Counted from the first letter of the stretch, positions 18,825 through 56,230 are shown. The stretch is DNA of 64,000 bases from a virus (IMGVR_UViG_3300028595_000011:451-64450); one strand, 5' to 3'. Translations and numbers: made by a program. Notes: generated by a model from the sequence alone, not told the origin.

Positions 18825-19871
18825 TTACGCTAGTTTCTCCGCCTCTTCAACCTTCTCCCTGAGAAAGTGATAGAATTCTTCTCTATCTTTTCTGGACCTG
18901 ATCTCAGTAACAGACTCAAAACCAGACTGACCAAGCAGGTCATACGTAGTACGTTCAGCAGCCTGCTGTCCAATTGCCTCTGCGAGTCTGCTTGCCAGAC
19001 CATCGACAGCCTGTTGGAATTGGTTGTCTTCATCGCTGGAAATTCTTCCGCTTCCCTCGAAGCTTGGCTCCTCTTCCACAGCTTCTGCGTCCACAACCAG
19101 ATCTTCAAGCGTTGACTTAGGCTCTTCGACATCGACCTCTCCGGTTTCGGGGTCAACCCTTTCTTCAAGCAGCTTATGCAGCAGACCACGTTCGGCATAC
19201 TCGTCCGCCGTGACAGCGGCCTGAACATCCGGTGACAGTGGCAGGTACTTCATAAGCTTGCGAACTACTGTCTTGCGAGCCATCTCTTCAAAGTCCGTGA
19301 CCCAAGGTCCGCTCTCTCCGGCTCGGCTGCGCTTCCTGATCTTTTCTACATCATCATCATACATGACTTCGAACGCAACCTCACCACTCTCGGTGAATTT
19401 GGCAGCAGCATAGACAGCGTGGAACTTGCCGGGTTCTGCGCCGACAGCCCTGGCTGGTACGTGTGTGAGGAATGGGTCAGCCCCGTATCCATAGCTGAAG
19501 TCATCGCCCTCATACACGACCCTCGCTTGAATCCATGCGATCTTCCCGCTGCGTCTGGCTAGATCAATCAGGCCACGGTAGCCTGGAATAAACTTGGCAC
19601 TCTTGCCATACGGCAGGATGTAACCATGACCAAGCACACCATCAGGCAGCAGGCCGAGAGAACTCGCCTCCATCACAGCCTTCATAAGAGATGCCGGTTC
19701 ACAATCCAGAAGCTTGGGGGTTGTTGTGATTGCTGTCAAGAACACACGGCTCATCTTCTCTGCCGTGATGTGCGACGGCAGCGCACGCCTGAGATTATCC
19801 AATGTCTCAGGGTCGCTCACCAACTTCTTGATTGCAAAGAACTTCTCGTTTGCAGGTACGATCTGGCTCAT
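18825..19871 (-). CDS. recT: RecT single-strand annealing recombinase
   Basis: LLDCEPASLMKAVMEASSLGL..GYILPYG..GYRGLIDLARRSG..W..DFEEMARKTVV..LPLS. Confidence 0.93.
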   Translation of the reverse strand: MSQIVPANEKFFAIKKLVSDPETLDNLRRALPSHITAEKMSRVFLTAITTTPKLLDCEPASLMKAVMEASSLGLLPDGVLGHGYILPYGKSAKFIPGYRGLIDLARRSGKIAWIQARVVYEGDDFSYGYGADPFLTHVPARAVGAEPGKFHAVYAAAKFTESGEVAFEVMYDDDVEKIRKRSRAGESGPWVTDFEEMARKTVVRKLMKYLPLSPDVQAAVTADEYAERGLLHKLLEERVDPETGEVDVEEPKSTLEDLVVDAEAVEEEPSFEGSGRISSDEDNQFQQAVDGLASRLAEAIGQQAAERTTYDLLGQSGFESVTEIRSRKDREEFYHFLREKVEEAEKLA

Positions 19872-20818
19872 TTCTTCTCCTTCACCCTGCGTAGGGTTTT
19901 GAATGTGCCACCCTTGGTGACACCAGGTTTGCGTGTGACGGTACTGACCCTGAAAGATCCACTACCATCAGGGAGAAAGCCTTCAGTGGCATCGCCAATA
20001 GCCTGCCAGATCTTGGCTTCGGCGTCCTTCTTCACCCTCTCCCACTCCTTGATCTTTTCCTTTGCACCTTGGACTTGAGCCGCCCAATGGATCGAGTCTA
20101 ACGGTAGCTCGATTTGCTTATCAGGGTCCGGCTCCGCAATGCGCTTGACCAGATCCAGATCCAAAGCACCAGCTACTGGTTGCTCGTTGTTCTCCACCAT
20201 CTGCCAGAAGGTTTGAAGCTTCTGGAGCATGCCGCCAATGAATTTCTCACTGCGTTCCACTAAAGCCCAAGCAAACCGATTGCCACCAATCAGTGTTGCG
20301 ATGCAACCAATATCTGCACCCGCAACAAACATTTGATGCTGGCATTGGGCCTGGTACTTGATCGGCGCTTCTTCAGCCCACTGATCAGCTACCCAGGCGC
20401 TGCTGTTTTTTAGCTCTAGTGGTCCCCACTTACCATCAATACACACCCAGTAATCCAGATTAGCCTGCATGAAGGGGTACTCCGGATGGGCCAAAGTGCG
20501 TGGCTCGGGTCGAACCTCATAGCCGGTTCTTTCCCGAAACTCATCAGCGATAAGCGGCTCTAGTTTATGTCCAAAGTGGAATAGCTCCATGAGTTCTTCG
20601 GAGGGTTCATCATCGAAGATCCCTCGCTTGTCTGCCCACACCTCAAGTGCGGACCTGAAGGCCCCATCAGCACCTAGAATAGAAGGGGTATCGGACGCCC
20701 CTATTCCTCCACGGCGTGCCATAAGCCACTCATCTGATTGAACTTGGAACTCTCCAACCACAACAGGCTCATGCATCAACCCCGGAGGGAATAGCATTCC
20801 TTCAGTCCATTCACTCAT
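19868..20818 (-). CDS. YqaJ-like (lambda-exonuclease family) exonuclease
   Basis: WLMARRGGIGASD..GHKLEP..ANLD..LELK..YQAQCQHQM; adjacent to recT. Confidence 0.9.
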   Translation of the reverse strand: MSEWTEGMLFPPGLMHEPVVVGEFQVQSDEWLMARRGGIGASDTPSILGADGAFRSALEVWADKRGIFDDEPSEELMELFHFGHKLEPLIADEFRERTGYEVRPEPRTLAHPEYPFMQANLDYWVCIDGKWGPLELKNSSAWVADQWAEEAPIKYQAQCQHQMFVAGADIGCIATLIGGNRFAWALVERSEKFIGGMLQKLQTFWQMVENNEQPVAGALDLDLVKRIAEPDPDKQIELPLDSIHWAAQVQGAKEKIKEWERVKKDAEAKIWQAIGDATEGFLPDGSGSFRVSTVTRKPGVTKGGTFKTLRRVKEKK

Positions 20819-26304: not shown

Positions 26305-27522
26305 CTATGCGTCTTGTTCACCGAAGTACAGCAGCCCATACTCCTGAACTATTTCCCAGTGATCTTGGATGTATGTCCTTTTGCTCTGACAGAATGGGCA
26401 GAGAACAGCTTTCTCTGTTCCACCACAACTGACCACTTCCCTGGTGTCTACTACACCATCATCTTCATGGAAGTATGAGGCACAGTCAAAGCACATCATG
26501 CCCTGGTCACTCCAGTCTGCCTCTTTTTCCAAGAAACCCCACCCCTGACTCTCAGTCTTGACAATCTTTTTGCTTTGACCTTCTTTGTCAAACAGCTTGT
26601 CAGCCTCGACTGTTGAGTCAGAGTCACAGTTGGGGCATCGGACAATTTCCTTGTAGCCCATGTCCCACTTAATAAGTCTCGATTCACCACGCTCGAAGTA
26701 TCCATGACAATCAACGCAGTAGTAGCTGATGTATTCCTTTGTGTTCTTGTCCTTGTCGGATCGAAGAACCTTCTTTGTTTCGGAACAATCTATACTAACA
26801 GCACACTTGTCCTTGTCGAACGCATTGGTTATTGGGTTTCCAGCAGCGCCACCATATCCATAGGTAGCCTTATTCTTGATCTGGTTTCGATTGTACTTAT
26901 AGTTCTTGCCATAGGTTATGGTCGAAGATTTGTATGGCTTCCAAAGCATATTGGAAAACCACACGTCCTTGTACCCCGACACCTGACCCCATGATCCTTG
27001 GTGCTCATTCACGATGGCAACATCACCGTTGCTATCCATGAACACCAGCTTGTTGCCACCGATGAACTTGCCGAGCATCTTATTGATAACACCAACACCG
27101 TCAAGTGTTTCAGTTGTGATGCCAGCCACAAGGTCTTCATGTAGTGGATGCAGGACATCCAGAATGAATGTTTCCGTGTCGCTAATGTCTTCATCCTTTG
27201 GCACATCAACGCAACTGAGTACCCCGTTGTGTGCCATGTAGACATCTTCGGTTACACCGAATGGATGAGTGTTCTCTGGTCGAACACTGCCGTGAGTTGC
27301 GATGCGAAAGTGGAGAACAACAGGGAGAGACTTGAATCTCTCCTTGCCCATGCGCTTGATGAATCGTTTCATCGAGCGCCATCGCATGAAGCCCTTCTTC
27401 ACATGCAACTCACCATCCTCAGCGAACATCAGGCCAGCGCCGTCGCTATTCTTTTTCCAGCACTGCTTCAGAACATCCATGTCTACATCCACATCAGATG
27501 GCTTGTAGACGATAACGCACAT
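26305..27522 (-). CDS. Class-II (Ntn) glutamine amidotransferase with C-terminal Zn ribbons
   Basis: Cys2 nucleophile, NSDGAG, HFRIATHG, HPF, HNG, SDT motifs. Confidence 0.9.
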   Translation of the reverse strand: MCVIVYKPSDVDVDMDVLKQCWKKNSDGAGLMFAEDGELHVKKGFMRWRSMKRFIKRMGKERFKSLPVVLHFRIATHGSVRPENTHPFGVTEDVYMAHNGVLSCVDVPKDEDISDTETFILDVLHPLHEDLVAGITTETLDGVGVINKMLGKFIGGNKLVFMDSNGDVAIVNEHQGSWGQVSGYKDVWFSNMLWKPYKSSTITYGKNYKYNRNQIKNKATYGYGGAAGNPITNAFDKDKCAVSIDCSETKKVLRSDKDKNTKEYISYYCVDCHGYFERGESRLIKWDMGYKEIVRCPNCDSDSTVEADKLFDKEGQSKKIVKTESQGWGFLEKEADWSDQGMMCFDCASYFHEDDGVVDTREVVSCGGTEKAVLCPFCQSKRTYIQDHWEIVQEYGLLYFGEQDA

Positions 27523-27531
27523 GCAATCTCC

Positions 27532-29046
27532 TTACTCCTCACGCTCAAACGTCAGCACCTCTGTCGTTTGGTTGAGGCATATGAAATTTTTGTAGGCTGC
27601 ACCTCTCTCGTGTACGAAATCAATGAATCTTTCGTACGTCGTGTGGTTGTACCCACAAGTCTTAGTGAAATCGAATAGAGCTTGAAGAAACTCTACGTTG
27701 CCAAAGTATACTGTCGGAGCTAGCGTGCTTCTGAAGATGCGACACTCAACAGTGTTCGAATTGCTCGTGTTGATTGCCGATCCCCTGCCGTGTGGTTGTT
27801 CTCCTCGTTTGGTTCGAGCGATGCTTAACAGTTCCTTGTTATCACCCAAGTTTGTGTTGGCCCACTGTCTCAGTCTTTTGGCCGGTCGCCTTGAGATCCT
27901 TGTGATGAATGCTTCATTCTCCTTGAAGAACTTCATAAACTTCAACAAGTGAAAGTTGGTGAAGGCATCGTTGCTCATGTGGACGTGCATCCCACAGTTC
28001 TCAGCATCATATCCTTTCATCAGCTTTGCGAGATTGAACATGGGTTTAAATGCATCCTCGTTCTTCTTCATCCACTCGTATGTGAATGGATGACTGACCA
28101 ACTCGAACCCATTCCTGATTGATGAGTCACTCTTGCAGTAGAAGAGACCGTTCCCTCCATCCTGCTCACCGAGTTGGATCAGTGCAGATTCACGAGGAAC
28201 ACCCTGACCCTTCGCCATTTCAATCTCAACCTCTGTTCCAAAGAACAGCGCACGTTCATCGAGATTGATCTCGACCTTCCTGAAATCGGGAATAGGTCGA
28301 TGACTGTAGTTCCTTATCTGATAAGCACCAGCAACTCTGTTACCTGCCCTTCTGTAACAATCCGGGCAAATGCCAGTGTTAGCACTTAAGTCCCTGACGT
28401 AACGACACCGCACCTCAAGCGTGCCTCCAGGCACATCACGATATGCATTGCTGCAAGATGTACAAGTGTACATCCTCGACCTCATGACGTTTACGTCAAG
28501 CTCACAAACCATAGTAAGCGCAGCCTCAACTTCAGCAACATCTCTCGATCTTCGCTGACGAATGATCGTGTTAATCTGCTGGGCTGCATGAACTCGACAC
28601 AGCTTTCTACCTTCAACTTCCCACACCCTGGAACGGAGCCGATCACTGTCACACTCGGCGCATGGATTCAGTGTATCCATGCAACTGGGACACCAGAGTT
28701 CTCCATTTGGTGACTCCATCCCCTCGGTTTGTAGTGTCGGCTGATCACATGATGGACAGAAAAAGTATGCGTCATTGAAGCACCTATAACAGAGCCGATT
28801 ACCTTGAAGGTCTCGCCTCATCTGTTCCTGTGCATCTTCGTCTCGCGGTGTAAAGCAGAGCCTTTCACAGCCCTCGGCAGAACACTGCTGAACAGCAGGG
28901 GACCCTATCTCTACACACTCTTTACAGATAGCAGTAGTATCCTGCCAGTCGAAGTACACTGGCGCATGATAATCCCGTGGTCCCATGAAGGTAGACTCGC
29001 ACACACAGCACCTCCACTCACTTCGAGCTTTCGGTACGTGCGACAT
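27532..29046 (-). CDS. COOH-NH2 amidoligase (Amidoligase_2/glutamine-synthetase fold) with multi-Zn-ribbon N-terminus
   Basis: FGTEVEIE..KSDSSI..GFELVSHP..CGMHVH..AIN..TVECRIFR. Confidence 0.85.
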   Translation of the reverse strand: MSHVPKARSEWRCCVCESTFMGPRDYHAPVYFDWQDTTAICKECVEIGSPAVQQCSAEGCERLCFTPRDEDAQEQMRRDLQGNRLCYRCFNDAYFFCPSCDQPTLQTEGMESPNGELWCPSCMDTLNPCAECDSDRLRSRVWEVEGRKLCRVHAAQQINTIIRQRRSRDVAEVEAALTMVCELDVNVMRSRMYTCTSCSNAYRDVPGGTLEVRCRYVRDLSANTGICPDCYRRAGNRVAGAYQIRNYSHRPIPDFRKVEINLDERALFFGTEVEIEMAKGQGVPRESALIQLGEQDGGNGLFYCKSDSSIRNGFELVSHPFTYEWMKKNEDAFKPMFNLAKLMKGYDAENCGMHVHMSNDAFTNFHLLKFMKFFKENEAFITRISRRPAKRLRQWANTNLGDNKELLSIARTKRGEQPHGRGSAINTSNSNTVECRIFRSTLAPTVYFGNVEFLQALFDFTKTCGYNHTTYERFIDFVHERGAAYKNFICLNQTTEVLTFEREE

Positions 29047-43231: not shown

Positions 43232-43475
43232 TGAAAAATATGAGGGAGTTAAGGATGGTGAGGCGATTGACATTGACTGGCGCAGTGGAGAAGCTATACG
43301 GTTTTCTTGCTGCGATTGCGGCTTGGTGCATCAAATTAACGTTGTTGCTGCGGGGCCGAAAATTAGAATGAGATTCTACAGGATGGAACGGGACACTCAA
43401 CAGCGAAGGGCAGAGAGGGGCATCATCCTCGAAGGGTATGTGCCTCCTCCAATTGGGCCTGGGGAGTTGAATTAG
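43224..43475 (+). CDS. Hypothetical phage protein (CCDCGLVH)
   Basis: GGAG RBS. Confidence 0.6.
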   Translation: MSDEKYEGVKDGEAIDIDWRSGEAIRFSCCDCGLVHQINVVAAGPKIRMRFYRMERDTQQRRAERGIILEGYVPPPIGPGELN

Positions 43476-44791
43476 TGAGCACACTAGACTCCATTGATAC
43501 AGAAGTGGCCGTGCTTAGCGCGGTCTTTGCTGATCCAGCAACGCTTTGGGATGCCATGTCTATCGTTGAGTCTGACCATTTCAGGGACAGAAGGAATCAG
43601 TATATCTTCAGTGCGCTCAGTAGTTTAGCTACAAATGGAATGCCGTACGACATGTCGGCTGTAAGGACGAAGCTTCGCCAAGATGGAGACATGTTTGTGG
43701 TTACTGAGTCGCACCTGTCTTCTTTGGAGGATCTGTCACCCGACACCACAAACGTTGCATGGTACGCCAACAAAATCAAAGAATCGTTCGTTAGGATTGA
43801 GGCGATCAAAGAAACCAATCGCCTTAAGGCTCAGCTTGAACAAGGTGGAAACTTAAAGGAGATTCTCGATGACCACAGTAAAACGTTGCTTGACCTGCAC
43901 GGCGGTCTTGCCGCTAGATCGGAAGCCGTCCATATCTCGCGCCCAGTCGGAGAGGCAATGGATCTGTTGGCAAAAATGCGTGCTGGAGATATTTCAGGAC
44001 TTGGTGTTCGAACTGGAGTTGGCGTCCTCGACGACAGGTTCAGCTTCTTTGCCCCAAAAAATGTCTACGTTATCTGCGGTGGAGTCTCTGCTGGAAAAAG
44101 CGCTCTCGCAGACCAAATCGCAGACTACGTGGCAGGGAATGGTTCAAATGTCTATGTTTCGTGCCTTGAGATGTCCGCGATGCAACGCGCTCAGCGATTC
44201 ATCTCAAGGAGGGCAAGAGTATCGTTGAAGGCTTGGCAGGCGAAGGACATGTTGAGCAAGGCCGCTGAGGAGAGCCTGCAGAAAGCGGCAGCGGAGTTCA
44301 GGAAGCCGCCCATTTACATTGATGACGCTCGTGGTTTAACGGCGCTCGACATCATGGCGAAGGCTCGGCGGTTTAGAGACACGCACGGTCTCGGCATGCT
44401 CATCATTGATTATCTGCAATTGATGAAGCCGCTGCGTCGTGGTCCACGGGAGCAAGAGGTTGCTGAAATGTCTGGCGCTGTGCTTGATATATCTGGCGAT
44501 CTTGATGTTCCGGTGATCCTTGTGTCGCAGTTATCGAGAACACACCAACACGAGAACAGGGAGCCGGAGCTTCGTGATCTTCGAGAGTCTGGCCGGATTG
44601 AGCAAGACGCCTTTGGTGTTGTTGCCATCTACAGGCCCCACCTTGAAGAGCCTGAGAGCAAGGTCATTGTGTTGAAGAACAGACAGGGTCCGCTTGGTCG
44701 CAGACAGATGCGATTCATTGGAGAACAGGTGCGCTTTGAGGAGATCCAATCTACAGACGTATACTACAAGGAGGCCTTTGGTGGCAATTAA
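43475..44791 (+). CDS. dnaB: Replicative DNA helicase
   Basis: Walker A GGVSAGKS, LEM, IIDYLQL, SQLSR, DLRESGRIEQDA, KNRQGP. Confidence 0.93.
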   Translation: MSTLDSIDTEVAVLSAVFADPATLWDAMSIVESDHFRDRRNQYIFSALSSLATNGMPYDMSAVRTKLRQDGDMFVVTESHLSSLEDLSPDTTNVAWYANKIKESFVRIEAIKETNRLKAQLEQGGNLKEILDDHSKTLLDLHGGLAARSEAVHISRPVGEAMDLLAKMRAGDISGLGVRTGVGVLDDRFSFFAPKNVYVICGGVSAGKSALADQIADYVAGNGSNVYVSCLEMSAMQRAQRFISRRARVSLKAWQAKDMLSKAAEESLQKAAAEFRKPPIYIDDARGLTALDIMAKARRFRDTHGLGMLIIDYLQLMKPLRRGPREQEVAEMSGAVLDISGDLDVPVILVSQLSRTHQHENREPELRDLRESGRIEQDAFGVVAIYRPHLEEPESKVIVLKNRQGPLGRRQMRFIGEQVRFEEIQSTDVYYKEAFGGN

Positions 44792-44981: not shown

Positions 44982-45226
44982 TGGGCGGAAGGTATAAGTC
45001 CACATTCACTGAGCAGGAAGTGCTTAATGTCATCAAGCAGAATCCTGGCATTACGGCAACTCGGTTGGCCATTAGGTTTTCCGTGAGTCGGCAAGCCATG
45101 CACCATAGGCTGAACAAACTTATAAGGAAGGGGTTTCTGAAGATCGACAATGGTGCCGGTCGAAGACCCAATGGGTACTACACGCTAGATCCAACACCTT
45201 GGAGAAGGAAAAGGTTTCATGGCTAG
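44981..45226 (+). CDS. Winged-HTH DNA-binding protein
   Basis: PGITATRLA..VSRQAMHHRLNKL..GFL. Confidence 0.75.
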   Translation: MGGRYKSTFTEQEVLNVIKQNPGITATRLAIRFSVSRQAMHHRLNKLIRKGFLKIDNGAGRRPNGYYTLDPTPWRRKRFHG

Positions 45227-45608
45227 TATTATGCAGTCAGAGGCTGGGCTTATGCTGTTGGCGGAGGAGTTTGATTTCCTTCGGAGCAAGAAGGTTCTGT
45301 CAATACTCCTCCTCCTCGCCACTCGTGGTCCGCTCACAAAAGAACAAATAGCAAAGTCCGGTATTGGAAAACCGTACAAGCTGAGGAAGAGACTGGACTT
45401 CCTGGTTGATCAGGGGATTCTTGTCCTGTCGAAACAGGTGTACAAAAAGGCACCACACATTCCGCCCAAAAACTACACACTGTACTACATGGCTGACGAG
45501 TTTATTGGAGAGGCCATAGTTGAAACCGCGAAGCTGTTGCAAAGATCTCACCAGGCGTACGCTGACGGCTTCCGCGTTTTGCGTAACCAGTTGAAACCAC
45601 TACCGTAG
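45219..45608 (+). CDS. Winged-HTH protein
   Basis: GPLTKEQIA..LDFLVDQGIL. Confidence 0.6.
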   Translation: MASIMQSEAGLMLLAEEFDFLRSKKVLSILLLLATRGPLTKEQIAKSGIGKPYKLRKRLDFLVDQGILVLSKQVYKKAPHIPPKNYTLYYMADEFIGEAIVETAKLLQRSHQAYADGFRVLRNQLKPLP

Positions 45609-45639
45609 CAATGTATCATTGTTTCGTAGGAGGTCCGTC

Positions 45640-46308
45640 ATGGACGAACAAAAAGCTGTTGAGCTAATGAAGGAACTCGGGGTCAGTTGCGAGATCGGAA
45701 CCGAGACCTACGAAGCAATGCTTGAACATCCGACCGTTGCCGCCTTTATGAAGGGTGAGGTTAGCATGAGCCAGGCTATCTTTGTTGAAGAGTATCTAGC
45801 CAATGGCTTTAATGCTTCTAGGGCAGCCAAGGCTGCCAAATACAGGGCATTCAATAAGGGCGGGTTCTCAAGTATTGGGAGCGTCGTGATGAAGAGCAAG
45901 AGGGTTAAGTCTCTGATTGCCAGGCGCATTACCGAGAGGGCAATGAATGCTAATGAAGTGCTTGATCGCTATAGAGATATTGCTGACGGCACCATCGGTG
46001 CCTTCTTGAGTGACGACTACAGTGCTGTTGATTTAAGGAAGGCTGCCGATGAAAACAAATTGCACTTGCTCAAAGACTTGAAGATTGATTCCGAGGGCAA
46101 CGTGCAAATCAAGATTCGAGACCAGGATCACGCGCTGGATCAGCTTGCGCGATCTCTTGGGGTGTTCGAAAAAGACAACACGTCGAAGCTCCCGCCGGAA
46201 ATCATTGCCCTCCTTGGGCTGTCTCCGCAAGAGCTACAGGCCAGGCAGGATGCGTATAGAGACATGAAGTCCGAGTTGGAGGGCGACAATGCAGCCGATG
46301 CCGGTTAG
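45640..46308 (+). CDS. terS: Terminase small subunit
   Basis: FVEEYL..FNASRAAKAAKY..ALDQLARSLGVF. Confidence 0.85.
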   Translation: MDEQKAVELMKELGVSCEIGTETYEAMLEHPTVAAFMKGEVSMSQAIFVEEYLANGFNASRAAKAAKYRAFNKGGFSSIGSVVMKSKRVKSLIARRITERAMNANEVLDRYRDIADGTIGAFLSDDYSAVDLRKAADENKLHLLKDLKIDSEGNVQIKIRDQDHALDQLARSLGVFEKDNTSKLPPEIIALLGLSPQELQARQDAYRDMKSELEGDNAADAG

Positions 46309-47035
46309 TGATGAAGAACTAACAGCACTAATCACAAACCACCAAGTAATTGACGAGGCGCTTGCCAAGGATTGCTGGAAGTGGTGCTGCCATCTTGTTG
46401 TCACTGTAGACGAGGCGGCAGACGAGGGCGTCTCTCGTCGTCGTCGATGGCCAGCCCGCCTCAAATATATTCAGGAAGCAATGCAAATCCTTAAGAATGA
46501 AAGGTTTGTGATCTTCCCGAAGTCTCGCCGCATGATGGCCACCTGGCTCATCTGTGCCTACCTGCTACATGATACACGCTACACGCCGGACTCGGCAAAC
46601 TTCATCCTGTCTGAGACGGAGCAGAAGGCCGCGTTCTGTATTGACAAGCGTTGTTACCATATGGAAACCAATCTACGATTCCCAGAATTCCAGAAAGAAG
46701 TCCACACCCTAAGAACCAAGACTGGCCTTATCGGGCGCATGACGTATCCCCACAACGGCTCGTACCTTTGGGGTCTCGCTAGCACTGGAGATGCGCTGCG
46801 CGCTTATACCGCCACCAAGGTTTTCGTGGATGAAATTGAATTCATTGAACAGGCCCCGGCGCTCACCCGCGCACTTGTGCCGCTGATCGAGGGCGGGGCG
46901 CAGGCAATCTTTGCATCGTCCAGCAATGGCCCAACAGGAATCATTGCGGAGTATTGCAGAGATGTCTCCTTTCACAAATGGGAAGATCTTGCTAAACTAA
47001 ATGCTGAAGACGTTGGAATTATGTACGCAAGTTAA
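46289..47035 (+). CDS. terL: Terminase large subunit, N-terminal ATPase part
   Basis: Deviant P-loop PKSRRMMATW, Walker B VFVDE, coupling motif SSSNG. Confidence 0.8.
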   Translation: MQPMPVSDEELTALITNHQVIDEALAKDCWKWCCHLVVTVDEAADEGVSRRRRWPARLKYIQEAMQILKNERFVIFPKSRRMMATWLICAYLLHDTRYTPDSANFILSETEQKAAFCIDKRCYHMETNLRFPEFQKEVHTLRTKTGLIGRMTYPHNGSYLWGLASTGDALRAYTATKVFVDEIEFIEQAPALTRALVPLIEGGAQAIFASSSNGPTGIIAEYCRDVSFHKWEDLAKLNAEDVGIMYAS

Positions 47036-47050
47036 TCAAGGAGGCATATC

Positions 47051-47740
47051 ATGGGTGGCGCAACAGGACAAGGTCAGTTGGGACAGGCTGCAAATCCGCA
47101 GCAAAGTGATCCGATGCAGAATCTAAACAGAGGCGGGATGCCGAATGTAGCACAGCCTCGGTTAATGGACACCTACTCTGGGAGCGTTGCTGATGCTCCG
47201 TCTTGGATTCGGGGCGGCATAGAGGCTAACAGGCGTCAGGTAAATACGCCTTCGCAAGCGCTGCAGAACATGGGCTTTGCCAACAATAGGATGCTTGGCG
47301 GCTCCCAGCAAGCCCAGGGCAAGGTTGGCAAGATCGCGGCTCCTGGCACTGACGGGCTGCCGGGGTCCGGCAATTCTTATGGAATGGCTAATGCTGGCCT
47401 GGGGAACCCCATCCGTCAGGACCGGCATGGAAGCAATATGATTGCCTCGCAAGGACAGCCGGTGCAGCTTGGTAACAATGCTGGTCGCGCCTCGGCTGGT
47501 GCTCCAGAGTTCGGTCGCTTCTGGAACCCGAACGACTGGAATGCGGCGAATCCGATGAGCAACTTCGAATCGCCCGAAGCCAGGCAGGCTGCGCGTCAAG
47601 GCGCTAGGCAAGACGCCAGACAAAATTGGAGAGATGCAGGAGGCTTAAGTATGCGGCCTGAAAATATGAACATCGGGCGGCAGGAACCGCGAGCCGGTGC
47701 GCCGCCAACCCCAGGAGGTTCGACTGGCGCAGGGAAATAG
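47051..47740 (+). CDS. Low-complexity G/N/Q/P protein
   Basis: GGAGG RBS; disordered composition; ends GGSTGAGK. Confidence 0.65.
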   Translation: MGGATGQGQLGQAANPQQSDPMQNLNRGGMPNVAQPRLMDTYSGSVADAPSWIRGGIEANRRQVNTPSQALQNMGFANNRMLGGSQQAQGKVGKIAAPGTDGLPGSGNSYGMANAGLGNPIRQDRHGSNMIASQGQPVQLGNNAGRASAGAPEFGRFWNPNDWNAANPMSNFESPEARQAARQGARQDARQNWRDAGGLSMRPENMNIGRQEPRAGAPPTPGGSTGAGK

Positions 47741-47750
47741 GGGAGATTGC

Positions 47751-48524
47751 ATGAGTAAAGTTCGGCGCTTGTTTTGGGATATAGAGACTTCACCTAATGT
47801 TGGTTTTTTCTGGTCATCTGGATACAAAGTAAACATTCCGCCCGATAACATCATTCAAGAGCGGGCCATCATTTGTATCTGCTTTAAGTGGGAGGGAGAA
47901 AAACAAGTACACTACCTTCAGTGGGATGGTGGATGCGACAGGGAAATGATCCGTGAGTTTATCGAGGTTGCATCGTTTGCAGACGAGATGGTTGCTCATA
48001 ACGGAGACAAGTTCGACATGGCCTGGTACAACGGTCGGCATCTGATTCATGGGTTTGATCCTATGCCTAACCACAAGACCGTTGATACGTACAAGATGGC
48101 CGCGAAGAACTTTAACTTGAACAGCTACAAGCTGGATTATCTTTCAAAGATCCTTCTTGGAGAGGGCAAGATCCATGCTCCGTTCCAGTTGTGGGAGGAT
48201 ATCGTTAAGTCGAATTGCCCGAAGGCAATGAAGAAGATGATCGCCTATTGCAAGAAGGATGTCGTCCTGCTTGAGAGGGTGTGGCAAAAGCTGAGCGCAT
48301 ACGAGGAGCCGATGACACACGCCGGCGTTTACAAGACGGGAGACGTGAAAAAGCGGTGGACCTGTCCGCATTGCGGTAGCGAGAATGTGTACAAATCAAA
48401 AACAAATGTCACCAGAAAGGGCATGGCCCACCACCAGATGCAGTGCAATGACTGCGGCAAGTACTACACGATTGTCGGTCTGGTGTACAAATGGTATAGA
48501 GAGGCAAGAGAAGCAACCGTATGA
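47751..48524 (+). CDS. DEDDy 3'-5' exonuclease (RNase_H_2-like) with Zn ribbon
   Basis: DIET, HNGDKFD, VDT, YCKKD; CPHC..CNDC. Confidence 0.85.
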   Translation: MSKVRRLFWDIETSPNVGFFWSSGYKVNIPPDNIIQERAIICICFKWEGEKQVHYLQWDGGCDREMIREFIEVASFADEMVAHNGDKFDMAWYNGRHLIHGFDPMPNHKTVDTYKMAAKNFNLNSYKLDYLSKILLGEGKIHAPFQLWEDIVKSNCPKAMKKMIAYCKKDVVLLERVWQKLSAYEEPMTHAGVYKTGDVKKRWTCPHCGSENVYKSKTNVTRKGMAHHQMQCNDCGKYYTIVGLVYKWYREAREATV

Positions 48525-49417
48525 GCATCTTAAAGGTTCTTCGGCATCGAGGCGGAGCCGCCATTGTCCCGATCCATTATAGTATGGACCCGGACAAAGA
48601 TGTCGTGTGGGCCAGCAAGATGAAACAAAAGGCCGCGAATGAAACTGATTGGCTTATGGAAATGGAAATCTCGTTTGAAACAACCGTTGGCACGAAGTGC
48701 TTTGAAAGCTTTAGCATGCTGGCCAACGTTGATGATTCAGTTGAGTATGACCCGTCCCTGCCAATCAGGCTATGCTGCGACTTCAACGTCGAACCCATGG
48801 CCTGGGTGATTGCCCAGGTTCATGGGGATGTTGTTCACTTCATTGACGAGATCTATCTCCCGGAGGGGGATACCATTGAGGCGTGTGAAGTTTTCCTCGA
48901 CAGATACGGGGATCACTACGGCGACGTGTATGTGTATGGTGATGCCAGTGGCAAATCGAGATCTTCGAAAGACTACGGATCGAACTACGACGAGATCAAG
49001 CTTCGCACAATGGGCCGTCCATTCAAGCTCAAGATGCGGGTGCCGCGCTCTAACCCATCCAATGTCAATCACGTTCGCAGTTTTAACCGCAGGCTCAGCG
49101 ACGAGTTCGGCAATCCAAAGATTCTGATTCACCCGAAGAAGTGTAAGAACTTGATTTTAGATCTTTTACAGGTAATATGGGAACCAGAGGGTAAGCGAAT
49201 TGCGAAGAGTCGCAAACGCGATGACCCATATTTCTGGCGTGGACACTGTGCGGATGCGGCAATGGCGCTCATCTACAGGCACTGGCCCACGCGCAAAGAG
49301 GTTTCGAGGATGTCTCAGGGCGAACGAGAGCATGACGCGGAAGTCAAGCGTCGGAAAATGCGGAACCGCAGGAAAAAGAAACTTATCGGGGCGTTCCCGT
49401 TTAGAGGAGGTAAGTAA
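48521..49417 (+). CDS. terL: Terminase large subunit, C-terminal part (lid, linker, RNase H-like nuclease)
   Basis: HYSMDPDK..EMEISF..CDFNVEP..IDEI..GDASG..HCADA. Confidence 0.8.
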   Translation: MSILKVLRHRGGAAIVPIHYSMDPDKDVVWASKMKQKAANETDWLMEMEISFETTVGTKCFESFSMLANVDDSVEYDPSLPIRLCCDFNVEPMAWVIAQVHGDVVHFIDEIYLPEGDTIEACEVFLDRYGDHYGDVYVYGDASGKSRSSKDYGSNYDEIKLRTMGRPFKLKMRVPRSNPSNVNHVRSFNRRLSDEFGNPKILIHPKKCKNLILDLLQVIWEPEGKRIAKSRKRDDPYFWRGHCADAAMALIYRHWPTRKEVSRMSQGEREHDAEVKRRKMRNRRKKKLIGAFPFRGGK

Positions 49418-51423
49418 TGCCTGACATGGGATTGATCGCTGAACAGGCAGGACTTCCTGAGCCGCCCGATGGGGCGGAACGGATTGCCTATGGAGAGGAT
49501 GCTCCGATTGAGATTCGGCTTGAACCCGGAACTGATCTCCATAAAAAGCTTTTGAATGAGCTTAAGCACCGCAGGGACTTCTCCAGAGAGTACATGAAGG
49601 ACCGACACGACGACTGGGACAGGGTTCGAGAGCACCAGAAGATGTATTTGAACCTTGATCGCAACGCTCGGGGCGGAAATCGTGAAGACATCTATGGTGA
49701 AACCGAGATGCCATTCCAGAGATCCGTTACAATTCCGCTTTCGAAGGCAACACTTGAGGTTCTTTTGACTCAGGTGATGTCCATTTACGCTGCTCGTGAC
49801 CCCATCATCCAGATTATGGCCGACAATGGCGGCTCTCCGTTCAGGGCGAAGCTTGTAGAGGCCATGATTGCCTACGATTTGATCCAAACTAAAGCGTATT
49901 CAGTACTTTACGCCATGTTTGGTGATGCATTTCAGTTTGGAAACGGCTACATCTACGATTCTTGGGAGTTAGAAGAGGGCGTGACCTACGAATTCGAGCC
50001 TCTTGCCGCCCCAGGCGTCCCCCCGGAGCTTCAGCGTGCCGTTCTTGGGCCGCTGGCGTACACTCCCGTCCGCAGAATCGGAATTCAGCGCGAATTTTGC
50101 AAGTGGACACCCATTTCTGCGTACGATATGCGCCCAGACCCACGGGTTTCGCAGTGGGCAATGCAAGAAGGGGAGTTTTGTGGGCATAAATGGAAGAGTT
50201 CTAAGCTTGCATTGATGAAAAGGTCTGGTGAGAAGGGACCGTACTTCAATATCGACCAACTTCCCGACAGATCGCTGCCTGGGGTCATGGATAGTGAGCG
50301 ATCTAACAGTTCTGACCCGTTCAATCCACACCAAGGCTCTCAAGAGCTATTGAAATCAGAGGCTCCGGCATGGTTGAACATGGAGACCATGGTTTGGGAG
50401 CTTGTTCCTAGAGATTTCGAGCTTGGCGAGAGCGACTTCCCGGAAAAGTGGGTGTTTTCGTGGGCTGAAGACAAGGTTATCTGTCGTGCGCACCCGCTCA
50501 TCAACAAGCACCAGCAGTTCCCCTACGCTGTTGCTGAGCCTGAGCCGAATTTCTTCGATCTGTTTTCGCCAGGAACCATGGAGCTTATCGAGCCGCTCCA
50601 AAGATTCATTAACTGGTTGTATAACAGTCACATCGAGAACATCACCCGCGTCCTGAATAACCAGTGGGTGTATTCTCCGCAGTTCATTGAAGAATCGGAC
50701 ATTGAGTTTGGTGGACCTGGCGAGAATGTCAGGATGACACAGGACGCCGTAGATGCAATGCTCAACGGGGAGATCCAAAGCGTTCAACAGTTCCTGTATC
50801 AGATGCCGGTCCAAGATGTCACTGGCCCAACGTACATGAATGCCATTCAGTACACATATCAGATGGCTCAGGTTATGACCGGGGCCAATGATCCGCTCAG
50901 CGGCATCCAGTTGCCGACGCAGCGATCCGCGACGGAGGTCGGGACCATTACCGCCAAGGCTTCTGAGCGCATGGCAATTACCGCTCGGCTCATGGACGAG
51001 AATGCGATTCAGGATTTAGTGAGGCGGTCCGTTCACAACCGCCAACAGTTCACGAGCATTGGAAGATACTACGAGATTGGCGGCAGGCTGGCGCAAGACC
51101 TCGGGATGGACAACATATTCGCTGATCTTGAAGACATCCAGGGTGATTTCAAGTACAAGCCGATTACCGGGATTCTCCCACAAGATCCGGCGAGGTCTGC
51201 TGCGAACTGGAGCAACCTCTTGTCTGCCGCTGGTCAGATTCCACAGTTGCAGCAGCCGGGTCCAGATGGTCGCGCCCTTGATTTCCGAGAGATCTTTAAT
51301 GTGATTGCTGAGAAGTCAGGAATCCAGAACATCGACGATTACTACATGGAAGTCCAAGTTATGCCAGATGAAGAGCTTGCACAGCAGGCCCAGGCTGGTA
51401 ACGTGGTTCCGGTCGGGGGTTAA
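49417..51423 (+). CDS. Portal protein
   Basis: 668 aa after terminase; RSATEV clip motif; Q-rich tail. Confidence 0.85.
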   Translation: MPDMGLIAEQAGLPEPPDGAERIAYGEDAPIEIRLEPGTDLHKKLLNELKHRRDFSREYMKDRHDDWDRVREHQKMYLNLDRNARGGNREDIYGETEMPFQRSVTIPLSKATLEVLLTQVMSIYAARDPIIQIMADNGGSPFRAKLVEAMIAYDLIQTKAYSVLYAMFGDAFQFGNGYIYDSWELEEGVTYEFEPLAAPGVPPELQRAVLGPLAYTPVRRIGIQREFCKWTPISAYDMRPDPRVSQWAMQEGEFCGHKWKSSKLALMKRSGEKGPYFNIDQLPDRSLPGVMDSERSNSSDPFNPHQGSQELLKSEAPAWLNMETMVWELVPRDFELGESDFPEKWVFSWAEDKVICRAHPLINKHQQFPYAVAEPEPNFFDLFSPGTMELIEPLQRFINWLYNSHIENITRVLNNQWVYSPQFIEESDIEFGGPGENVRMTQDAVDAMLNGEIQSVQQFLYQMPVQDVTGPTYMNAIQYTYQMAQVMTGANDPLSGIQLPTQRSATEVGTITAKASERMAITARLMDENAIQDLVRRSVHNRQQFTSIGRYYEIGGRLAQDLGMDNIFADLEDIQGDFKYKPITGILPQDPARSAANWSNLLSAAGQIPQLQQPGPDGRALDFREIFNVIAEKSGIQNIDDYYMEVQVMPDEELAQQAQAGNVVPVGG

Positions 51424-51424
51424 C

Positions 51425-51706
51425 ATGAAGTGGTGGAAGGAAAATGCTGGCTGGACATCTGCATTCGTCGCTGTCCTTCTTGTTGCTGTTGGTTGGCTAA
51501 GCGGTCTTTTTGAGCACGTTGTCGAGATTGAGGCTAAGCCAGCAATTCAAAAAGAAATATATTTGCACGAACTTGAGGTAGAACCCAGGCTGCAAAAGAT
51601 TGAAACGACCAGCACATACAACAAGGAAGAGATCCAAAAAATTCAAGACAAGCTTGATGACAGTCTAGTAATACAGCAAAAAATTCTTGATAAGGTGAGT
51701 GAATAA
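51425..51706 (+). CDS. Single-TM coiled-coil protein (holin/antiholin-like)
   Basis: One TM plus coiled coil before endolysin. Confidence 0.55.
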   Translation: MKWWKENAGWTSAFVAVLLVAVGWLSGLFEHVVEIEAKPAIQKEIYLHELEVEPRLQKIETTSTYNKEEIQKIQDKLDDSLVIQQKILDKVSE

Positions 51707-52266
51707 TGAAGATTTGCATTGACCCTGGTCACGGTGGGCATGACCCAGGAGCCATTGGTCCAACTGGGCTAAAGGAAAAGGTCGTGGCCCTTTATGTCGC
51801 ACAAGAGTTGAGCGATCTGTTCGAGCTTGAAGGCTGCGGCATTGAAACATATCTCACCAGGTTTGATGATGAGTTTGTGTCTCTCCAGGGTAGGTGCGAT
51901 GCTGCCAACCAGAATGGCGCAGATTTGTTTATCTCTATTCATTGCAACTCTTTCCATAAGCCACAGGCCAGCGGCTTTGAGGTTTGGACCTCTGTTGGCT
52001 GGACCCCGGCTGACAAGTATGCATCGCATGTGTTCCAGAAGATTCGCTCATACTTCCCGTTCAAGAGGGGGCGCGTTGATATGAGTGATGGCGATGAAGA
52101 CAAAGAGGCGCAGTTCAAGGTTCTTCGAGGAACTAAGATGCCAGCCATCCTTGTTGAGTTGTCCTTTATTTCTAATCCATACGAAGAGCACGAGATGAAA
52201 GACCCTGAGTGGAGAGACACGATGGCACGCGCAATCTATGAGGGGGTGTGCAGTGCAAGATTCTAG
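51706..52266 (+). CDS. Endolysin, N-acetylmuramoyl-L-alanine amidase (Amidase_3)
   Basis: IDPGHGG..E..SIHCN..PAILVELSFISN. Confidence 0.93.
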   Translation: MKICIDPGHGGHDPGAIGPTGLKEKVVALYVAQELSDLFELEGCGIETYLTRFDDEFVSLQGRCDAANQNGADLFISIHCNSFHKPQASGFEVWTSVGWTPADKYASHVFQKIRSYFPFKRGRVDMSDGDEDKEAQFKVLRGTKMPAILVELSFISNPYEEHEMKDPEWRDTMARAIYEGVCSARF

Positions 52267-54862: not shown

Positions 54863-54895
54863 CTAATTTAAACAACTCTGCCTTTGGAGGCAAAA

Positions 54896-56230
54896 ATGGC
54901 AGAAGCTATTCTCGGCATGCGTGGCACTGGCTCCTGGGGCCTTAGCTCCAATGAGCGTCCTACTAACTTCCGCGAGAAGATCCTTCGGGAATACCCGAAT
55001 GGTCCTGCGGTTTTCATGGGCCTTCTGGGTATGCTCAAGTCCGAAGATGTGGATGACGTGAAGTTTACCATCTTCGAGCAGACTTTCCCGGATCAGATTC
55101 ATGCGCTCGTGGCCACTGGCGATGTCACCGATGATGGTGACACGGCATCGACCCCGACGACCTCAACCGGCACCACTGACCAGTATATTGTTCTTGGTAC
55201 GACTGAATACACCAATCCTGAAAACTATTTCAAGGTTGGTCACATCATCAAGAACGAGACCACTGGCGAAGTGATGCTTGTTGTTGGTAAGGGCTCTACC
55301 CTGGCCAACTCACTGAAGGTTATCCGCAACATCGGCGCGTCGGCTACTTATGGCGACAACAGCGGCTCGGTTGGAACCGGCGTTGCTCCCAGCAACAGCC
55401 AGGTCATTACCATTATCGGTAATGCCAACATCGAGGGTGACAACTACCCGACCGCAATCGCCTATCAGCCGAGCGAGCGGTGGAACTTTATCGAGACGTT
55501 CCGCACCGCGCTTGAGTTGACCGACGATGCTGCCCAGACCTACTTCCGCACCGGAAAGGTTCTGGACAACCTGAAGTACGACGCTGCGATGCAGCACTCC
55601 ATGGAGATGGAGAAGGCGTTCTGGTTTGGTAAGCGCGAGCTTCTCCAGAGCGGAACCGGCTCTGACACCGTCCCATATCCGATCACCCCGACCATCTCTG
55701 GGCGGACCTCGACCCAGGATCAGCGGTTCATGGGTGGGTTCAACTTCTTTGTTGATTCCAACTATACGACCGACTTTTCTAGCGGCCTGAGTCGCGCTGC
55801 GTTCCTTGAGTTCCTGCGCCCGATCTATACCATTCCTGGCATGTCCATGAATAAGATCGCGTTCTGTGGTTCTCAGGCTCTCGGTGTGATGACTCAGTAC
55901 GCTGAGGATCTTGGGCAGATCTTCCTGGAGCCTTCGGACAAGACCTACGGTCTGCAGATCCGGACCCTCGTGCATGCTTGGGGCGAACTGAAGATGGTCA
56001 ACCATCCTCTGTTCTCCGAGCATCCCTCTTGGGCCAAGCGGATGCACATTGTGGACACGAAGAACGTGATGTATCGCTTCCTTCGTGGCCGCGACACCCG
56101 CTTCCTGAAGGACCGCCAGGGCAATGGCGAAGACAAGACCGTCCACGAGTTTATGACGAAGGCCTCGCTTGAGTTGCGCCACCCGCGCACCCATGGCATC
56201 GCCACCGGCATCGACGCTTTCGTGGGCTAA
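54896..56230 (+). CDS. Major capsid protein (SU10/DUF5309-like)
   Basis: NFIETFRTALELT..HSMEMEKAFWFG..RFMGG pattern; biased codon use. Confidence 0.85.
   Translation: MAEAILGMRGTGSWGLSSNERPTNFREKILREYPNGPAVFMGLLGMLKSEDVDDVKFTIFEQTFPDQIHALVATGDVTDDGDTASTPTTSTGTTDQYIVLGTTEYTNPENYFKVGHIIKNETTGEVMLVVGKGSTLANSLKVIRNIGASATYGDNSGSVGTGVAPSNSQVITIIGNANIEGDNYPTAIAYQPSERWNFIETFRTALELTDDAAQTYFRTGKVLDNLKYDAAMQHSMEMEKAFWFGKRELLQSGTGSDTVPYPITPTISGRTSTQDQRFMGGFNFFVDSNYTTDFSSGLSRAAFLEFLRPIYTIPGMSMNKIAFCGSQALGVMTQYAEDLGQIFLEPSDKTYGLQIRTLVHAWGELKMVNHPLFSEHPSWAKRMHIVDTKNVMYRFLRGRDTRFLKDRQGNGEDKTVHEFMTKASLELRHPRTHGIATGIDAFVG

Follow-up and report, generated by a model that had tools for sequence, protein, structure and literature searches.

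Can the motor protein that packages a viral genome be made as two separate chains? The question is raised by a 64,000-nt stretch of viral DNA (IMGVR_UViG_3300028595_000011:451-64450, hereafter the window), in which the gene for the terminase large subunit (TerL) appears as two open reading frames (ORFs) standing 1,485 nt apart, one for an ATPase half (N-half) and one for a nuclease half (C-half). The window covers bases 451-64450 of a 64,450-base linear virus record from a metagenome assembly, rated ~78% complete. A first reading of this DNA, made from the sequence alone and called here the original prediction, had proposed that the motor truly consists of two chains, with the split inside the ATPase domain, and that an exonuclease encoded between the halves may be coupled to it and act in end processing.

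Packaging-motor models treat TerL as one chain, in which ATPase core, lid and nuclease exchange force and signals through covalent links. Interrupted terL genes are described in the available parts of several reports. The terL gene of Jug phages is split by group I introns, with support from RNA reads (PMC12880540), that of Twort has a group I intron (PMC13729910), and that of phD2B has a presumed intron and a homing endonuclease (PMC4246154). AceL-TerL and GOS-TerL contain naturally split inteins, which need 25+104 or 37+115 residues (PMC11766414). The literature that we searched, in which few subscription journals are covered, contains no described two-chain TerL and explains split terL genes by introns or inteins. 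In the SEA-PHAGES function list, terminases reportedly have one entry for an 'ATPase domain' and another for a 'nuclease domain'. Here, comparison with relatives and structure modelling together make it likely that the TerL of the window phage consists of two chains made from two genes.

The two halves carry the ATPase and nuclease domains of a terminase

Both halves belong to TerL families, and the possibility that they derive from unrelated families was thereby set aside: in PHROGs, the N-half matches phrog_5989 (1.7e-7) and phrog_2 (2e-6), and the C-half matches phrog_10250 (7.2e-10). In Pfam, neither half has a match, even at E<=1. Four TerL ATPase families of Pfam, searched against the record, matched nowhere, apart from a sub-threshold match in the zinc ribbon of the exonuclease, described below.

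A profile built from 24 N-halves (profile A1) matches T4 gp17 at E 5e-10 over residues 140-290, a segment bounded by Walker A and the TTPNG motif. The N-half spans the additional strand, conserved glutamate (ASCE) ATPase core: it begins with the N-terminal helices, extends past the coupling motif to include one more helix, and closes with a conserved ...YAS tail. The deviant P-loop, the Walker B motif and the coupling (C) motif that had been noticed in the sequence are all present and align on T4 gp17 (Table 1). P-loop residues P77, K78, R80, R81 and W86 are invariant in 24/24 N-halves, as are D181, E182, S212, G214 and P215, so that the N-half has the Walker B and coupling motifs of a TerL. 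In the P-loop, there is no GK[ST] lysine; the position of the canonical Walker-A lysine is taken by Ala/Met, and K78, which stands upstream, may substitute for it. Phage lambda gpA presumably has a similar P-loop with an upstream lysine. The Pfam family GpA_ATPase matches one N-half relative, P0043, at 8.2e-6. Since the lysine-free P-loop is common to one-chain relatives too (see below), it is a trait of the family, not of the split.

The C-half protein begins MSILKVLRHRGGAAIVPIHYSMDPDK. Its AlphaFold2 (AF2) model has a predicted local distance difference test (pLDDT) value of 84.9. Among solved structures, Foldseek matched this model to the TerL nuclease domains of SPP1 (2wc9), P22 (4dkw) and G20c (5m1o) at TMt 0.63-0.67 (0.58-0.67 for the TerL nucleases of SPP1, P22, G20c and P74-26), and to full-length D6E TerL over ~250 columns at E 1e-7. 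The C-half family profile matched no solved structure by sequence; the likeness was found by fold search. In addition, D87, D141, D214 and H242 are invariant in 25/25 C-halves, as befits the RNase H-like nuclease of a TerL. The second half therefore carries the nuclease, as first proposed, with both its fold and its acidic residues. At the end of the protein, a K/R-rich tail contains a nearly invariant glycine (G290) and has low pLDDT at residues 288-298; one may suppose that this tail takes part in portal docking.

The cut is shared by a clade of split terminases with one-chain relatives

Stand-alone N-halves form 44 clusters of 164-278 aa, with identities that range between 34% and 100%. The C-half, used as query in a full HMMER search, had 2,500 hits. 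Among the best 35 representatives (E<=1e-30), 30 measure 106-314 aa, and the other 5, with 482-567 aa, are one-chain proteins. All five one-chain representatives carry both domains, and the two halves together cover one-chain relatives from one end to the other.

A profile search with the N-half retrieved 80 viral and 22 genome loci, on whose ORFs N and C domains were scored; a scan of the genome contigs with the single protein had returned nothing before the profile scan gave the 22 loci. Within a set of 80 distinct N-domains, 28 are fused to a C domain, 21 are split with at least 120 nt between the halves and 20 are split and abutting, while 5 have a partial C match and 6, mostly because their contig stops there, have none. 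In the tree of these 80 N-domains, which omits N-domain matches covering <170 profile positions and identical duplicates, the window lies in a 28-row clade with a support of 100. This clade contains 19 rows with an insert, 5 abutting rows, 4 rows that end with their contig and cannot be scored, and no fused row. All 24 scorable rows are thus split. Between the halves, the gaps range from overlapping stop and start codons to 4.5 kb of varying cargo.

A second tree was built from the 28 clade rows, 8 hand-picked outgroup rows and the 5 one-chain representatives. Here the one-chain representatives are interleaved with split ones, in a wider 33-row clade (100/100), where they stand in an unresolved group beside the 10-row subclade of the window. 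Between the fused and the split state, these trees require 4-5 changes, 2 of which are forced by well-supported branches, and they settle neither the number of fissions or re-fusions nor their direction.

In the abutting relatives, the stop codon of the first half overlaps the start codon of the second, for instance as TAATG, TAGTG or ATGA. Because such overlaps are those of coupled genes, the abutting halves are two translatable genes and not the debris of a frameshift. The arrangement is not due to chance: the cut recurs in independent assemblies. Synteny agrees, the cut being conserved across the clade and the gene order of the window being repeated in one close relative (L113). In 5/5 close relatives, all metagenome contigs with N-half identities of 75-79%, the low-complexity gene that follows the N-half in the window is likewise next to it. 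Among records of cultured phages, the N-half search found 679, none of which reaches 60% identity or covers 80% of the N-half, and the C-half search found 92; no close relative is present among cultured phages.

One relative of the N-half was located on a 4.7-Mb contig. A split TerL of the wider clade (L088, 9929-13328) stands on a 117.8-kb contig of a Saprospiraceae (Bacteroidota) metagenome-assembled genome, with ORFs of 298 and 309 aa between its halves. This contig may be a prophage or a mis-binned phage, and gives the only host hint found for the clade.

The cut lies inside the ATPase domain

For P0048, one of the one-chain relatives, the model shows the fold of a complete TerL (pLDDT 82.5), with T4 gp17 as best Foldseek match (E 1e-17), followed by the TerLs of D6E, Sf6 and HK97. 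Its elements are arranged in the order P-loop strand (E69-74), Walker-B strand (E175-179), C-motif strand (E205-211) and helix H218-225; then come a loop (226-243), strands E244-246 and E252-256, the lid helices (H266-286) and the nuclease, from E320. The cut site corresponds to the low-confidence loop 226-243, which comes after helix H218-225. When P0048 is compared with just the ATPase domain of T4 (2o0j), the alignment has 286 columns and extends beyond the cut. Hence, the split lies inside the ATPase domain, where the original prediction had placed it.

When the N and C chains of the window were modelled as a complex, the interface score ipSAE reached 0.90, 0.90 and 0.92, versus 0.00 for the best of 3 controls, in line with the proposed heterodimer. 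The mark used for this score is reached by 58/80 solved complexes and by 2/110 mismatched pairs, counts that apply only roughly, as the alignments were our own. Between runs, at least 77% of contacts are shared, and the partner has a pLDDT of at least 79. The tightest contacts are predicted between residues 73-79 of the N chain (FVIFPKS, the strand leading into the P-loop) and residues 13-20 of the C chain (AAIVPIHY), with an error of 0.3-0.5 Å. Residues 45-54 of the C-half also belong to the predicted interface. In this model, the ATPase beta-sheet would be completed in trans by a strand of the C-half lying beside the Walker-A strand. Because the halves of split genes tend to pass such a test through their likeness to one-chain proteins of solved structure, the score supports this geometry without proving binding.

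Genes between the two halves

The spacer encodes, as first read, a low-complexity protein and a DEDDy exonuclease, whose stop codon overlaps the start codon of the C-half (ATGA). The low-complexity ORF is rich in G, Q, N and P and has an AAGGAGG site 7 nt upstream. Its product matched no Pfam or PHROG family, a look-up in the Atlas gave no usable relative, and its Atlas model (pLDDT 0.39) indicates a disordered protein. All 11 homologues that were aligned stand directly after an N-half, and all belong to the subclade of the window (three are located in Table 1). Each of the 11 carries an N-terminal motif of ~24 aa, G-Q-L-G-Q-x-A-N-P-Q-x-x-D-P-x-Q-N-x-N-x-x-G-[FLM]-P. The first ~30 residues are conserved and the tail is variable, complete copies having 171 to 409 aa. 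In the subclade of the window, such a protein always comes directly after the N-half. Judged by its sequence, it resembles a variable tail that bears a short motif for docking.

The exonuclease likely starts with the ATG at 47752. It matches phrog_403, 'DNA polymerase exonuclease subunit', at 5.4e-57 and the Pfam family RNase_H_2 at 9.5e-8 (32.6 bits versus a cut-off of 22). Its translation contains DIE, HNGDKFD and YCKKD, which are the Exo I, II and III motifs (DxE, NxxxFD and YxxxD) of a DEDDy enzyme, and a C-terminal CxxC...CxxC ribbon was read from the same translation. This zinc ribbon (48330-48464, + strand) weakly matches positions 185-232 of GpA_ATPase, with 12.8 bits and E 0.0026, below the cut-off. 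The match probably reflects a generic likeness of zinc ribbons, phrog_403 covering the region as well.

The cargo between the halves, past any low-complexity gene, differs from one relative to another. A homologue of the exonuclease is found there only in the window and in L113, the sole close relative whose contig reaches that far. Only the low-complexity gene is present in L008, L010 and L012. Three unrelated ORFs (541, 520 and 190 aa) occupy this place in L002, ORFs of 143 and 320 aa in L015, a DNA methylase (N6_N4_Mtase, 6.4e-16) in L036 and a metallophosphoesterase-like protein in L035. Other relatives have further cargo ORFs to which no identity was assigned, and in L004, L020, L022 and others the halves abut without cargo. 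A family search with 10 cargo ORFs from 7 relatives matched no endonuclease family. In a more distant split relative (L044), a 216-aa Cys-rich ORF without a Pfam family stands between the halves (10600-11250, + strand).

The exonuclease, and perhaps the low-complexity protein too, could be working parts of the terminase that process DNA ends during packaging. The ATGA overlap suggests translational coupling with the C-half, the order N-half, low-complexity gene, exonuclease is also that of L113, and the low-complexity gene with its motif follows the N-half in 11/11 aligned members of the subclade. Moreover, searches of the ~78% complete record for PolA and PolB family polymerases found none that a 'polymerase exonuclease subunit' could serve. 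However, gene overlap is usual along the whole row, phrog_403 is an exonuclease family of the replication type, and one-chain and abutting relatives evidently function without the exonuclease. Because relatives beyond the nearest kin of the window have other genes, or no gene, between their halves, we read the exonuclease as a lineage-specific passenger and not as a conserved partner of the motor. Taken as a whole, the reading of the inserted genes as working parts appears distinctly unlikely, and the coupled exonuclease of the original prediction is not supported; the low-complexity protein may or may not have a role in packaging.

Decay, artefact and splicing

A decaying, non-functional terL of a defective element, or an artefact of assembly, might be suspected from the linear, ~78% complete metagenome assembly and from a P-loop without the canonical lysine. 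Yet the one-chain relatives have the deviant P-loop as well, and numerous independent contigs, with identities as low as 34%, retain the cut together with unchanged catalytic residues. The split genes occupy the canonical terS-terL-portal place inside an intact morphogenesis row, and L113 repeats their order. In addition, contigs from other sequencing runs match the window at 100%, the junction between the N-half and the low-complexity gene included. Decay and artefact, chimeric assembly among them, are thus largely refuted, and we regard them as very improbable.

Nothing is missing at the junction of the halves. Residues 22-234 of the N-half align with residues 17-225 of the one-chain relative P0063, and residues 12-251 of the C-half with its residues 233-473. 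As only 25 junction residues remain unaligned in the window halves, versus 7 in P0063, there is no room for an intein. An E-value scan of 45500-50000 with Rfam found no intron family, its sole match being snoZ30 at E 0.61, and Pfam at E<=0.1 found no Hint or homing-endonuclease domain. These results bear out the absence of intein ends, homing endonuclease and intron noted at the outset. The spacer is coding throughout: each of its two ORFs has a ribosome-binding site of its own, and the gene boundaries overlap or nearly abut.

Three RNA-library runs, from three studies, contain contigs of 151-219 nt that are 100% identical to the window. One of these (46920-47070) runs unspliced over the stop codon of the N-half into the next gene. 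No contig joining separated parts of the window was seen in these runs, whose contigs are short and of low depth. Overall, the sequencing runs covered only 0.05-0.12 of the sampled words, and parts of the window that they leave uncovered carry no information. An apparent joint in run X3 was rejected as a splice: 231 other letters stand between its two sides and X3 holds only relatives of the window, which assigns it to a divergent relative.

Published split terL genes are explained, in the available text of their reports (PMC12880540, PMC4246154, PMC11766414), by rejoining of the parts at the RNA or protein level. For the window, such rejoining, whether through a self-splicing intron, a split intein or some other form of trans-splicing, deserves scarcely any credence, with no Rfam intron family at the locus, no Hint or intein domain, a spacer occupied by two ORFs that each have a ribosome-binding site, 25 junction residues where TerL split inteins need 25+104 or 37+115 (PMC11766414, available text) and, more weakly, an RNA-library contig left unspliced at the N-half stop and no RNA joint.

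A probable two-chain packaging motor

Taken together, the pair of ORFs, a cut conserved across the clade, the tiling of one-chain relatives by the halves, the invariant motifs, the lack of intron and intein signatures and a complex model that passes its controls argue for a two-chain motor. The original interpretation is thus supported as regards a two-chain motor split in the ATPase domain, and not supported as regards the coupled exonuclease.

In the mechanism that we propose, the N chain would bind and hydrolyse nucleotide with its deviant P-loop, Walker B and coupling motif, and the C chain would contribute the final core strands of the ATPase together with lid, nuclease and C-terminal tail. 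The two chains would most likely assemble non-covalently. As suggested by the complex model, the N-terminal hairpin of the C chain would insert beside the Walker-A strand and, by strand complementation, rebuild a normal TerL protomer. Such a protomer would presumably be enzymatically active and do the work of a one-chain TerL, which packages DNA at the portal and cleaves it. The cut itself would be an old gene fission at one fixed site of the TerL family. After this fission, the boundary between the halves may have turned into an ordinary intergenic site, at which the phages of the clade gain and swap passenger genes. In the window phage, the passengers would be the disordered protein and the DEDDy exonuclease.

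Several points weigh against a two-chain TerL. The case comes from comparison and modelling, and a second, one-chain TerL may lie elsewhere, the record being ~78% complete. With the canonical Walker-A lysine missing, the ATPase chemistry is assumed from family likeness only. The success of the complex prediction may reflect the model's memory of solved one-chain TerLs, in which case it shows likeness and not binding, and the first 60 residues of the C-half, when modelled alone, reach only a pLDDT of 63-83. The RNA-library contigs possibly derive from DNA and cannot show transcript, strand or ends, so they are a weak hint. Finally, a weak word search for fused relatives of the N-half found none in 2,112 candidates, a result contradicted, and overridden, by the five one-chain proteins that the C-half search found.

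A bolder reading joins these elements and takes the cut as a working design, in which the ATPase depends on docking, the disordered protein is a packaging factor and TerL is an altered target for host sensors. We consider it rather unlikely as a whole. If true, an N chain deprived of the lid and of the strand adjacent to the P-loop would keep its ATPase off until the nuclease chain docks, and motor activity would depend on the assembly of the two chains. The 24-residue motif of the disordered protein might dock on the terminase or on the portal, adding a third packaging factor. As pure conjecture, a two-chain TerL might look different to host sensors that recognize folded TerL, such as those of the Avs type.

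If, as we favour, TerL is made here as two chains, a clade with close one-chain relatives offers a natural experiment on which links between the domains are needed, on completion of the ATPase in trans and on the stoichiometry of the activities. There are also consequences for annotation. The halves have no Pfam match, and pipelines that expect a single TerL of ~500 aa can miss or mis-score such phages; trees built on TerL as a marker can be affected by split TerLs as well. More generally, a fission point in an essential gene can turn into a landing site for passenger genes.

Relation to known systems

T4 gp17, D6E, Sf6 gp2 and HK97 TerL share with the window TerL the ASCE ATPase fold with its Walker B and coupling motifs, the lid and the RNase H-like nuclease, and one-chain TerLs also share its gene position between terS and portal. 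The window TerL differs in consisting of two polypeptides, the last core strands and the lid travelling with the nuclease. Compared with the one-chain TerLs of solved structure, its P-loop lacks the GK[ST] lysine. Interrupted by introns or inteins, terL genes resemble that of the window in comprising two or more ORFs with foreign DNA between them. In contrast, the window has no ribozyme, Hint domain or homing endonuclease, and its product is expected to remain two chains.

The nearest mechanistic precedent is the ribonucleotide reductase gene nrdA of Aeromonas phage Aeh1, likewise an essential enzyme gene cut into two translatable genes, the products of which reportedly, in an account of 2007, reassemble non-covalently. 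In the window, there is no homing endonuclease between the halves, the cut is old and clade-wide with variable insert content, and the halves show no obvious interaction tails of mobile-element origin. The Aeh1 gene, in contrast, is cut by the free-standing homing endonuclease gene mobE, and is presented as a case of genes in pieces in the available text of the report (PMC3045599).

Gene row and other features of the window

The genes of the terminase region are on the same strand and tightly packed, in the order terS, TerL N-half, low-complexity gene, exonuclease, TerL C-half and portal (Table 1); every ORF of the original prediction was recovered at its place. Adjacent genes either overlap or stand 11-15 nt apart, and overlap is the norm along the whole row. 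The terS gene overlaps the start of the N-half by 20 nt, and the stop codon of the C-half shares one base with the start codon of the portal gene (TAATG). With terS directly upstream of the N-half and the portal gene directly downstream of the C-half, the pair has the gene position of a TerL; its ATPase and nuclease are encoded by separate ORFs in the window and not as one polypeptide. A scan of 45000-52000 for promoters and terminators gave 6 and 5 sites, versus 5.7 and 6.8 expected from shuffles, and was uninformative.

Table 1 Features of the terminase region and locations of low-complexity homologues in related contigs
Feature	Position	Strand	Basis or remark
terS (small terminase subunit)	45619..46308	+	Pfam Terminase_2 2.9e-15; phrog_51 8.1e-16
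TerL N-half, 248 aa	46289..47035	+	phrog_5989, phrog_2; stop TAA at 47035
Deviant P-loop PKSRRMMAT, residues 77-85	46517..46543	+	aligns on T4 NLSRQLGKT
Walker B VFVDE (D181, E182)	46820..46834	+	aligns on T4 IYIDE
Coupling (C) motif SSSNGP, residues 210-215	46916..46933	+	aligns on T4 TTPNG 286-290
Low-complexity protein, predicted disordered, 229 aa	47051..47740	+	no family; Atlas model
DEDDy (DnaQ-like) 3'-5' exonuclease with C-terminal zinc ribbon	47752..48524	+	phrog_403, RNase_H_2
TerL C-half, 298 aa	48521..49417	+	phrog_10250; Foldseek
Predicted beta-hairpin ILKVLRH / AAIVPIHYS, C-half residues 1-24	48521..48592	+	complex model; P0048 strands
Lid-like helices H28-37, H41-48, H66-69 and nuclease linker, C-half residues ~25-75	48593..48745	+	AF2
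RNase H-like terminase nuclease domain, C-half residues ~80-265	48758..49315	+	invariant residues; Foldseek
Basic C-terminal tail, LIGAF-type end motif, plus stop codon	49316..49417	+	conservation; pLDDT
Portal gene	49417..51423	+	Pfam SU10_portal 4.6e-21
Low-complexity homologue in L002	1483-1953		
Low-complexity homologue in L008	1618-2457		
Low-complexity homologue in L113	3688-4917		

Further down the row, after the portal gene and a short ORF, an endolysin gene (51706-52266, + strand; phrog_435, 5.2e-48) stands among the head-assembly genes, with the major head protein gene further on (54884-56230). The placement of the endolysin gene is another sign of a module that tolerates inserted genes.

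Elsewhere in the window, a DnaB-like helicase is encoded at 43475-44791, and a pair formed by a RecT-like annealing protein and a RecE-like exonuclease at 18825-20818 (- strand; phrog_148, 1.7e-78, and phrog_434, 2.3e-69). A single ORF of 3,826 aa (6861-18341, + strand) matches no PHROG family at E<=0.001 and could encode a giant virion, injected or polymerase-like protein. At 26305-29046 (- strand), a gene pair has weak PHROG matches of the amidotransferase and amidoligase type. Two reverse-strand ORFs stand upstream of the terminase in the relative L004 (1-2253, - strand) and, on inspection of their sequence, look like the same pair.

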